A stretch of DNA of 24,970 bases from Candidatus Fraserbacteria bacterium RBG_16_55_9 (lineage in GTDB: Bacteria > Bipolaricaulota > Bipolaricaulia > RBG-16-55-9): positions 1 through 24,970 of the forward strand of contig MFGX01000122.1 in assembly GCA_001778455.1 (NCBI GenBank), given 5' to 3'. Positions 1-1,290 of the stretch are shown here, piece after piece. The position numbers were made by a program, and so were the translations under genes. Under the pieces are notes generated by a model. The model made no database searches and was not told the DNA's origin. It was given only the letters and a program-made list of their open reading frames with translations. How positions within the stretch are numbered: position 1 is the stretch's first letter; the number at the start of each line of letters is the position of its first letter.

Positions 1-223
1 CAGGATCGTAGTTAAGGAGCGGCACATTATGCTCAGCCATGAGCGCAAGCATCTGCCGATAGGTTACGCCTAAAACATCCGCAGCGTAGCGTATGGTTAT
101 CTCCCCCTCTTGGATGAGGGCGAGCAAGATGGATTGGAGTGCTTTAGTCTCGGCTTGCTTTTTGGAGCCCAGAGTTTCCAGTAGCTCCTCTGGTACATGC
201 AGCTCCACTTTCTTGAGCGCCAT
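1..223 (-). CDS. UPF0175-family protein (putative antitoxin-like HTH protein), runs off the left edge of the window
   Basis: Not in the ORF track because no stop lies in the window. Manual translation from ATG at 223 gives MALKKVELHVPEELLETLGSKKQAETKALQSILLALIQEGEITIRYAADVLGVTYRQMLALMAEHNVPLLNYDP... The segment 'L.QEG.IT...AA..LGV....ML.LM..HNVP...YD' matches my recollection of UPF0175. SD AAAGGAGAGG lies just upstream on the minus strand. Confidence 0.75.
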   Translation of the reverse strand, partial: MALKKVELHVPEELLETLGSKKQAETKALQSILLALIQEGEITIRYAADVLGVTYRQMLALMAEHNVPLLNYDP

Positions 224-287
224 TGCAACCTCTCCTTTGGATTGGACTATACTAACGGTTCCATAGGTCGTCGGTGTCGGTCGTTTA

Positions 288-315
288 AGTGTAGCAGTTT
301 CGGGTGCGGTGTCAA
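288..315 (-). promoter_or_regulatory. sigma70-type promoter for the UPF0175 gene, pointing away from oriC
   Basis: Minus strand reads TTGACA (315-310), 16 bp, TACACT (293-288), with TGC immediately before the -10 (extended -10). Confidence 0.65.
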
Positions 316-416
316 TGGCCTCCCCTTTGAAGAACAACCCCGACAAACGGTCCGGGTCGTCATGGCACCAATCGCGCATCATAAGATGCAATTGAGAATT
401 CATTTTATTCTTCCCC

Positions 417-616
417 TGTGGATAACCCTGTGGAAAACCCTGTTAAAAACCTGTGGAAAACTCACCCCATGCTGTGGAAAACCCCTGTGGAAAACTCCCC
501 ACCCAAGTTATCCACAGAAGTTATCCACAAGCGAGAGCCACTTTTCCACAACTTTTCCACAGCTCATTCCACAGGCGATCTTCAATTCTCATCAAGCGAA
601 AAGCCACTTTCCCACA
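417..616. repeat. Array of about 12 DnaA boxes (9-mer TT[AT]TCCACA) in two oppositely oriented groups
   Basis: Nine copies match the consensus TT(A/T)TNCACA or its reverse complement, and three are near-matches. Six face left (417-494) and six face right (508-616). Confidence 0.92.
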
Positions 617-630
617 GGATGAACGCCCCT

Positions 631-645
631 CTACTACTACTACTA
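631..645. promoter_or_regulatory. DnaA-trio tract (3'-GAT-5' x5 on the bottom strand)
   Basis: Top strand CTACTACTACTACTA lies 14 bp after the last DnaA box and a GC-rich patch (CGCCCC), and directly before an AT-rich run. This is the layout of the Bacillus subtilis basal unwinding system. Confidence 0.8.
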
Positions 646-710
646 GTTAATAAATATATATCTGTAGTCGTTGTTGTAAGGCCTCAGCTAGCCTAAGGGC
701 CAGAATGGCT

Positions 711-747: not shown

Positions 748-1290
748 ATGAGCACAATCACCCTAACAGAGATCCGTCGTATCTTTGAAAGACAAGGCTT
801 GGGGAAAGAATTCATAGAACAGGAACCGATGCTTCTCTGGTCTAGAGTCGTAGGTCAGCAGATGAGTCGACTGACGCAGCCTCTTCGAATTCGTCAAGGA
901 GTGCTCTATGTTGAGGCCACGAACCACGTAGTTGCCCAGCAGCTCAACCTAATGAAAAACGCCTATCTCAACAAACTCAATGGGCTCTTGAGCGAAGGGC
1001 GGCTGATGGATCTACGCTTCCGGGTGGGAGGACTCTCACAGCCCCTGGCCCAAGACCCACCCGAGGGAGAGCAGGTGAGCTTGCTGGAACGAGAGAAGCT
1101 GGAGCAGCTTCTCGACGAAGCGAAAGATCCTCAGCTTAGAAAAGCGTTTGAGTGTGTGATTCTCGCACTTGCCAAAAGAGATCGTGATAGAGCGGCCCGT
1201 GGCTACGCGCGGTGTGAGGTCTGCGGCGTCCACCACGACAGCGAGGGCCGGATCTGTTATTACTGCCAACAAGAAGGGCAGACCCTGTGA
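748..1290 (+). CDS. dciA: DUF721/DciA-family protein (replicative helicase loader candidate) with C-terminal Zn ribbon
   Basis: DUF721-like core 'LWSRVVGQQMSRLTQPLRIRQGVLYVEATNHVVAQQL...KLN...DLRFRVG'. C-terminal CEVC...CYYC Zn ribbon as in COG5512-type proteins. Directly adjacent to oriC. Confidence 0.78.
   Translation: MSTITLTEIRRIFERQGLGKEFIEQEPMLLWSRVVGQQMSRLTQPLRIRQGVLYVEATNHVVAQQLNLMKNAYLNKLNGLLSEGRLMDLRFRVGGLSQPLAQDPPEGEQVSLLEREKLEQLLDEAKDPQLRKAFECVILALAKRDRDRAARGYARCEVCGVHHDSEGRICYYCQQEGQTL

Follow-up and report, generated by a model that had tools for sequence, protein, structure and literature searches.

Two opposed, mirror-spaced arrays of DnaA boxes in a predicted replication origin of an uncultured Bipolaricaulota bacterium

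Close to the end of a contig from an uncultured Bipolaricaulota bacterium lies a dense group of DnaA boxes, directly followed by dciA, the gene for a helicase-loading factor. The host carries the NCBI label 'Candidatus Fraserbacteria', as does a relative from the same genus. The window, by which we mean the whole stretch of DNA that was analysed, corresponds to bases 1–24,970 of contig C122 (40,844 bases) and belongs to a MAG of 1.96 Mb that is 80% complete. Boxes were located by reading positions 361–720 and by scanning for TTWTNCACA, and a total of 12 were found in 417–616. The features of the locus are listed here, with the two box arrays designated by their position relative to the DUE.

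389–410, no strand: AT-rich element of the left flank with the core AAATTGAGAAT, some 17 nt beyond the outermost distal box
417–425, minus strand: DnaA box L6 (TTATCCACA, perfect), the sixth of the DUE-distal array, 3 bp to the left of 429 and present in most relatives
429–494, minus strand: DUE-distal array L5–L1, boxes starting at 429, 441 (degenerate), 452, 473 and 486, with spacers 3-2-12-4
495–507, no strand: central spacer of 13 bp, GC-rich and box-free, separating the two head-to-head innermost boxes, with its midpoint at nt 501
508–573, plus strand: DUE-proximal array R1–R5, boxes starting at 508, 521, 542, 553 and 565 (degenerate), with spacers 4-12-2-3
574–607, no strand: R5–R6 gap of 34 bp, conserved in length, a candidate bending site by position
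608–616, plus strand: DnaA box R6 (TTTCCCACA), 34 bp to the right of 573, the anchor box of a putative basal unwinding system (BUS)
617–630, no strand: GC-rich spacer of 14 bp from R6 to the trios, also 14 bp in 11 of 12 relatives
631–646, minus strand: DnaA-trios, CTA five times on the top strand, which is 3'-GAT-5' on the bottom strand
647–662, no strand: AT-rich core of the putative unwinding element, from reading of the sequence and comparison of relatives
663–680, plus strand: inverted trio-like set (TAG/TTG repeats on the top strand), conserved in relatives, with no DnaA box beyond it
748–1290, plus strand: dciA (helicase-loading factor; Pfam PF05258, E = 5.6e-16), directly downstream of the predicted origin

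The original prediction described ten boxes in two opposed arrays centred on nt 501, and the box scan confirmed both the positions and the centre. The start of each box and the end of its partner add up to 1002 in every pair, which places the centre at nt 501, and the spacer series across 429–573 reads 3-2-12-4-[13]-4-12-2-3 exactly as had been claimed. Eight of the ten mirrored boxes are perfect matches to TTWTCCACA; those at 441 (TTTTTAACA) and 565 (CATTCCACA) have two mismatches each. The inventory of ten was correct as far as it went, but the boxes at 417–425 and 608–616 had been overlooked. There is no box at the mirror positions of these two (577–585 for L6 and 386–394 for R6), so the symmetry is confined to 429–573. 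The element as a whole is polar: a sixth contiguous box is present on the left only, and the 34-bp gap, R6, the trios and the AT core are present on the right only.

The left-flank element is found with the same motif at the same offset in relatives of families f1–f4 and in the contig L038, and is absent from family f5. It might be a promoter, a protein site or a minor unwinding element. A mirrored partner for this motif was sought and discarded, as the ATTCTCA in the R5–R6 gap is off the mirror position and is not conserved. A hidden low-affinity box within the 12-bp spacers was likewise rejected. Only the A at position -2 before the next box is conserved, and the change from 12 to 2 bp seen in f5 removes 10 bp, whereas a box with its spacer would account for 11 bp.

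How widely is this arrangement distributed? One genome per GTDB species was scanned for the inner four-box core, defined by 4-bp inner spacers and a centre of 11–15 bp. This gave 18 loci, 14 of them labelled Ca. Bipolaricaulota, Acetothermia or Fraserbacteria, three 'Thermotogae' and one 'Nitrospirae' (L038, with the same architecture). Two of the 'Thermotogae' contigs are identical to loci of Bipolaricaulota (L029 to L015 and L034 to L010), and the third (L039) matches G019 in its contig coordinates. Within the phylum the core is present in 18/34 genomes of the order to which the window belongs versus 2/150 elsewhere, and a reversed control pattern gave 0. The spelling of the boxes shifts as a set between lineages: TTTTCAACA is used in family f4 (L010, L018, L019), TTTTGCACA/TTATGCACA in G010 of family f3 (L049/L036), and many boxes in genera g4 and g6 (L009, L014, L006) are TTTTCCCCA. 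Such lineage-wide shifts with the geometry unchanged suggest that box spelling co-evolves with domain IV of DnaA.

The original prediction proposed that orthologous origins be checked for spacer lengths that are conserved while the spacer sequences vary, and this is what is found. Oriented alignments identified the identical series 3-2-12-4-13-4-12-2-3 in ten genomes or contigs (G000, G001, G003, G007, G004, G008, G006, G019, G010 and L038), which represent six named genera in two families (f1 and f3) and the unplaced L038. In G010 two of the box slots have decayed and all boxes are of the GCACA type, with the frame kept. The only difference in G009 (f2) and in G005 is a centre of 12 bp. Across the order the centre is 13 bp in most genomes and 12, 14 or 15 bp in a few, and its sequence varies. 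Between genera, the boxes are 0.84–0.93 identical among genomes with the CCACA spelling and 0.64–0.71 identical to those of G010 with GCACA. Over the 55 spacer columns the identity between genera is 0.35–0.62, where about 0.41 is expected from composition, yet in nine genomes there is not one change of length over these 55 positions. The flanking DNA serves as a neutral yardstick for insertions and deletions. Among these genomes dciA starts 115–150 bp from R6, and within a single genus this distance can differ by 22 bp (142 versus 120). Indels thus accumulate freely less than 100 bp from an array element that has accepted none.

Where the geometry does change among the families, it changes in a restricted manner. 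Only spacers of 1–4 bp or 12–13 bp are used, those of 5–9 bp or of 14 bp and more being essentially absent, so that box starts are 10–13 or 21–22 bp apart. The earlier observation that start-to-start distances lie near one and two helical turns therefore extends across the families. In genus g10 of family f5 (G012, G015, G027) the 12-bp spacer of the proximal arm has become 2 bp, a loss of 10 bp that gives 4-2-2-3, and the distal arm is still 4-12-2-3. Genus g13 has 4-2-2 in both arms and is mirrored again (4-2-2 | 4-2-2). In G021 and G023 the innermost distal box is shifted by 2 bp (4+13 to 2+15), the centre of 15 bp being offset by the change of the inner spacer from 4 to 2 bp. G002 shows a compensated shift from 2+12 to 1+13, together with one extra base. 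Family f4 combines a distal arm of 4-13-2-13-2 with a proximal arm of 4-12-2-3. The changes are thus steps of about one helical turn or are compensated, a pattern in favour of a constraint on helical phase and contacts that acts on each arm and on the centre.

Is it then the two-fold symmetry that is selected, or the phasing within each arm? The original prediction favoured the former, and a symmetric head-to-head double pentamer or hexamer of DnaA that needs identical arms would be the natural form of this explanation. It has several observations on its side. Families f1 and f3 retain the exact mirror, from which f2 departs just in its 12-bp centre; the 13-bp centre is strongly conserved; g13 has lost 10 bp in both arms and is symmetric once more; and the unwinding element also has inverted sets of trios. 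However, the arms change independently, which argues against symmetry as the selected property: the proximal arm alone was shortened in g10 (G012, G015, G027), and the two arms differ in f4 (4-13-2-13-2 against 4-12-2-3). The full origin is also asymmetric, with six contiguous boxes on the left, five and a distant sixth on the right, and an unwinding element on one side. We therefore regard selection on two-fold symmetry itself as unlikely. The comparison of these sequences suggests instead that what is selected is probably the helical phasing inside each arm, together with the centre.

The mirror could also be a historical by-product of an old inverted duplication, with spacings that are under no selection and lengths that have merely stayed the same. 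The spacers of the two arms had been described as not being reverse complements of each other, and this is correct: with the left arm reverse-complemented, the arm-to-arm identity is 0.29 in the window and averages 0.39 over nine genomes compared with 0.41 in shuffles. Left arms of different genera are 0.59 identical. An identity between arms that is no better than that of shuffles indicates that there has been no recent duplication, gene conversion or concerted evolution, and a recent inverted duplication or gene conversion was rejected because the residual arm homology is absent. In composition, however, the arms are alike, as both have 59% G on the box strand and short spacers that are typically GG, GGG or GGAG. 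The mirror may have come from an inverted duplication that is older than the order and has left no trace in the sequence, or from convergence on one oligomer geometry. A by-product would be consistent with the uneven series 4-12-2-3 in both arms, which is most simply explained by duplication, and with the lower frequency of indels relative to substitutions. Yet the spacer sequences are near saturation with zero length change, the adjacent non-coding DNA varies by up to 35 bp, and the changes that are observed are 10-bp steps or compensated shifts. Unselected spacing is for these reasons improbable, and selection on phasing remains our preferred reading.

Two further explanations concern what the region is. 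The region at 417–680 is predicted to be the chromosomal replication origin (oriC), complete with boxes, GC-rich spacer, trios and AT core. This identification is based on the sole box cluster together with the BUS layout, the skew and the synteny. The genome has 27 perfect copies of TTWTCCACA in 1.96 Mb, nine of which are in 417–561, and there is no second cluster of DnaA boxes in the rest of the 80% complete assembly. A BUS is defined as one or more DnaA boxes, a spacer of at most 16 bp, at least three trios with a central A, and then AT-rich DNA (PMC8287927). Here there are R6, 14 bp, five CTA repeats and an AT core. The trios are conserved as CTACnACnAC across the phylum, and the combination of box, spacer and CTAC-type trios is phylum-wide. 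The window's own genome is not matched by the phylum-wide pattern of box plus trios because its R6 is TTTCCCACA, which is a limit of the pattern and not an absence of the feature.

The putative unwinding element (631–680) is itself two-fold, since the CTA/CTAC trios and the inverted trio-like set flank the AT core on opposite strands, and this is so throughout the order. The formation of a hairpin or cruciform from the two trio sets was considered and rejected (DNA fold -3.5 kcal/mol, z = -0.09). There is no DnaA box beyond the second trio set in either the window or G001. In the outgroup G059 (L108:565–660) the inverted trios are followed by an inverted box, and in G084 (L110) there is an inverted box with no clear inverted trios. 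On the other side of the element, the R5–R6 gap is 33–35 bp in 12 genomes of f1–f3 while its sequence varies, and is 35 bp in G059. By analogy this gap may be a bending site; the genome holds several genes of the HU/IHF family, and by eye the 34 bp contain no convincing IHF consensus. In family f5 (L011–L013, L017, L021) the gap is 68 bp and includes an AT-rich stretch and a conserved palindrome (CGACTGACCGGTCGGTCG) that are absent from the window's family.

In a relative (G029:C11), cumulative GC skew is lowest at the orthologous cluster, at 258.5 kb of a 370-kb contig; this is a single long contig, and the skew on it reverses again 50 kb further on. GC skew is -0.041 to the left of the origin in G015 and +0.079 to its right on the window's contig, which ends at the origin. 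The gene order in outgroups is dnaA-oriC-dciA (L108–L111, which are G059, G038, G084 and G129, with Pfam confirmation for G059 and G038). In the window's family oriC and dciA are still together and dnaA is on another contig, the adjacency of dciA being conserved in f1. In G010 the origin still adjoins dnaA. There are no promoters within the arrays, and one promoter-like site is present at 711–739, ahead of dciA. Among known RNA families, the only match in 1–1300 is a spurious one to MIR821, far below threshold, which is caused by the inverted boxes.

If the cluster were not the origin, it might be a secondary cluster of boxes, comparable to datA/DARS or the Bacillus DBC, or else a promoter region through which DnaA controls dciA or the UPF0175 gene. 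The location of dnaA on another contig would be compatible with this, as would the placement of the cluster between two divergent genes and a genome so incomplete that a further cluster could be missing. However, this is the only cluster in the assembly, its trios and AT core are in the BUS arrangement, the skew minimum of a relative coincides with the orthologous cluster, and the same element is found directly after dnaA in outgroups and in G010. Additionally, the arrays have no promoter-like sites and the left-hand gene is not conserved. A function other than that of origin is very improbable.

Could the pattern have arisen by chance? In a crude null, each of the four spacers is taken independently from the pool of those in the sister families; P for 4-12-2-3 is then about 1e-3, and simply permuting the four gives 1/24. 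Conservation is a stronger argument against chance than the spacer-pool null. A chimeric inverted assembly had been named as a finding that would overturn the prediction, and it did not occur: contig X5 from an independent run spans 413–563 with zero differences, X1 spans 309–503 and X3, from a related strain, spans 525–675, with no joints and no structural difference. Predicted origins are often located within about 1 kb of a contig end (window 1–417, G009:C8:544, G002:C199:1189, G008:C56:1062, G025:C4:8), and that of G015:C1 is 3 kb from one; it seems that assembly tends to break off at the arrays or close by. Although the element is 417 nt from the start of its contig and related MAGs likewise have origins near contig ends, chance or an assembly artefact has next to no probability, given that independent Logan contigs cross nt 501 without differences, that the layout is repeated in more than 20 MAGs from different studies, in some of them mid-contig, and that the arms are not reverse complements.

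We therefore return to an origin with phased arrays, and to the initiator that would bind it. The dnaA gene of the window's genome is at G000:C14:43703–44900 (loci L001, L083, L085). About 20 aa precede its AAA+ domain, and an N-run scaffold gap in this assembly puts DnaA domains III and IV in different frames. The stop-to-stop frames of dnaA in relatives are 350–384 aa in 10 of 11 cases and 453 aa in one, with the AAA+ domain starting about 10–35 aa downstream of the earliest potential start codon. When all six frames were searched for Pfam DnaA_N, the order gave 0/34 genomes with a match and the rest of the phylum 136/150, where the frames that bear it are mostly about 430–570 aa. On these sequences DnaA lacks domains I–II throughout the order. 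Long-range contacts between DnaA molecules and the binding of helicase are functions of domain I, and contacts between close boxes are made by domain III (review, PMC5448010). A DnaA consisting of III–IV only would help to explain why the boxes are strong and their close, phased spacing is rigid. This tie between domain loss and rigid spacing would be one drawn from a single evolutionary event, and it is weakened by the outgroups G059 and G084, which have full-length DnaA and looser, roughly mirrored opposed arrays (a triple, a 12/13-bp gap and more boxes), so that the general plan is older than the loss of domains I–II.

The best overall explanation, and one that we consider probable, is an oriC with two opposed phased arrays for the same oligomer, in which it is the spacing and not the symmetry that is selected. 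For how it would function, we infer a filament model, a role for the left arm, bending of the gap and a link to the loss of domain I. The region at 429–573 would be the DnaA-oligomerisation region, its two mostly consensus arrays facing each other across the 13-bp centre. The right array (R1–R5), with R6, points at the BUS and would melt the AT core by nucleating a DnaA-ATP filament. The left array (L1–L6) would be the counterpart of the Right-DnaA subcomplex of E. coli, stabilising or extending the unwinding and helping to load the second helicase, in which DciA would be involved. Spacer lengths would be fixed because neighbouring DnaA protomers need compatible faces of the helix for AAA+ (domain III) contacts, and this phasing would matter most in an order whose DnaA is without domains I–II to bridge distant boxes. 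The arms would be mirror images because both are built for the same oligomer, and the mirror itself probably stems from an inverted duplication that predates the order.

A bolder version, which strikes us as unlikely, is that what domains I–II used to do is now done by the origin DNA. A rigid scaffold of 6 + 6 consensus boxes would hold two abutting, opposed oligomers of DnaA(III–IV), each acting on one of the inverted trio sets on either side of the AT core, and on this symmetric platform DciA would load two helicases without a contact between domain I and the helicase. If this is true, it would be a naturally minimal bacterial initiation system and suited to structure determination. In E. 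coli the spatial arrangement of the opposed DnaA subcomplexes and the DUE-distal role are still debated, and the picture is complicated by weak sites, by IHF/Fis and by DnaA domain I. The lineage described here would offer a natural simplification, with a DnaA of about 345 aa (AAA+ and DNA-binding domains only) and twelve strong boxes. Evolution has mapped the permitted spacings (1–4 or 12–13 bp, in 10-bp steps), the rules of phasing are testable in vitro, and a homogeneous complex for cryo-EM is plausible. It would also allow one to ask how helicase is recruited in a DciA-type system whose DnaA has no domain I. If this is merely a tidy origin of the E. coli type, the gain is modest, namely the first origin architecture described for Bipolaricaulota; a literature search found nothing relevant on mirror-symmetric DnaA boxes or on oriC in Bipolaricaulota.

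The origin of E. coli is the closest parallel for the two arrays. It has five plus five oppositely oriented boxes that carry two facing DnaA pentamers (PMC10316083; PMC9198467), including four plus four weak sites with a uniform 2-bp spacing within each half (PMC6070618). By direct reading the order in E. coli oriC is DUE, TGTGGATAA (R1), TTATACACA (R2) and TTATCCACA (R4). When flipped, the E. coli origin has the same orientation as the one described here, with the proximal array pointing at a one-sided unwinding element and the distal array inverted, and both have two opposed arrays of five boxes in the same orientation. A long gap sets off the DUE-adjacent box in each (R1-IHF-R5M in E. coli; R6, 34 bp and R5 here). 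The Right subcomplex of E. coli is not needed for unwinding; it aids DnaB loading and attaches to the portion of the ssDUE that lies farther away (PMC9198467). Sensitivity to helical phase between the halves is also shared; in E. coli deletions of 10 bp between the subcomplexes are tolerated and those of 5 bp and 18 bp are not (PMC9198467). The two opposed DnaA filaments that had been proposed for this locus thus fit the orientation of the boxes, but they are the established E. coli model (PMC10316083; PMC9198467) and are not novel.

There are also clear differences from E. coli. Nearly all boxes here are consensus, whereas those of E. coli are of low affinity and are filled from the high-affinity R1 and R4. 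The spacing here is 2, 3, 4 and 12 bp and is mirrored, unlike the uniform 2 bp of E. coli (PMC6070618). There is no middle box of the R2 type, and the halves abut across 13 bp. DnaA-trios are found here in place of the 13-mers of E. coli. The DnaA of this order is without domains I–II, whereas domain I in E. coli bridges boxes and binds the helicase, and the helicase partner would be DciA where E. coli has DnaC.

For the unwinding element the parallel is the BUS of Bacillus subtilis (DnaA boxes 6 and 7), with which box R6, the 14-bp GC-rich spacer, five 3'-GAT-5' trios and an AT core agree in canonical order and orientation (PMC8287927). It differs in having one clear box by the trios and an inverted trio set past the AT core, and the two-array region is outside the BUS definition. 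Thermotoga maritima oriC is similar in that its TAG/CTA repeats are the ssDNA-binding element, and in that the spacing and orientation of boxes decide the cooperation between DnaA molecules, 2 bp being optimal for direct repeats (PMC10316083). However, its boxes are 12-mers, and there are five of them, mostly in one direction, with no mirrored second array (PMC10316083). Other families of Bipolaricaulota (G059, G084, G038, G129) share the order dnaA-oriC-dciA, opposed groups of boxes, a gap of about 35 bp, R6, the 14-bp spacer and CTAC-type trios. Unlike the window's order they have fewer or weaker boxes, a centre of 28–39 bp and full-length DnaA, and they lack the inner 4-13-4 pair (2/150 genomes outside the order against 18/34 within it). 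Read against these known systems, the element appears to be a two-subcomplex region of the E. coli type joined to a BUS of the Bacillus type, and thus an unusually regular variant of a known design.
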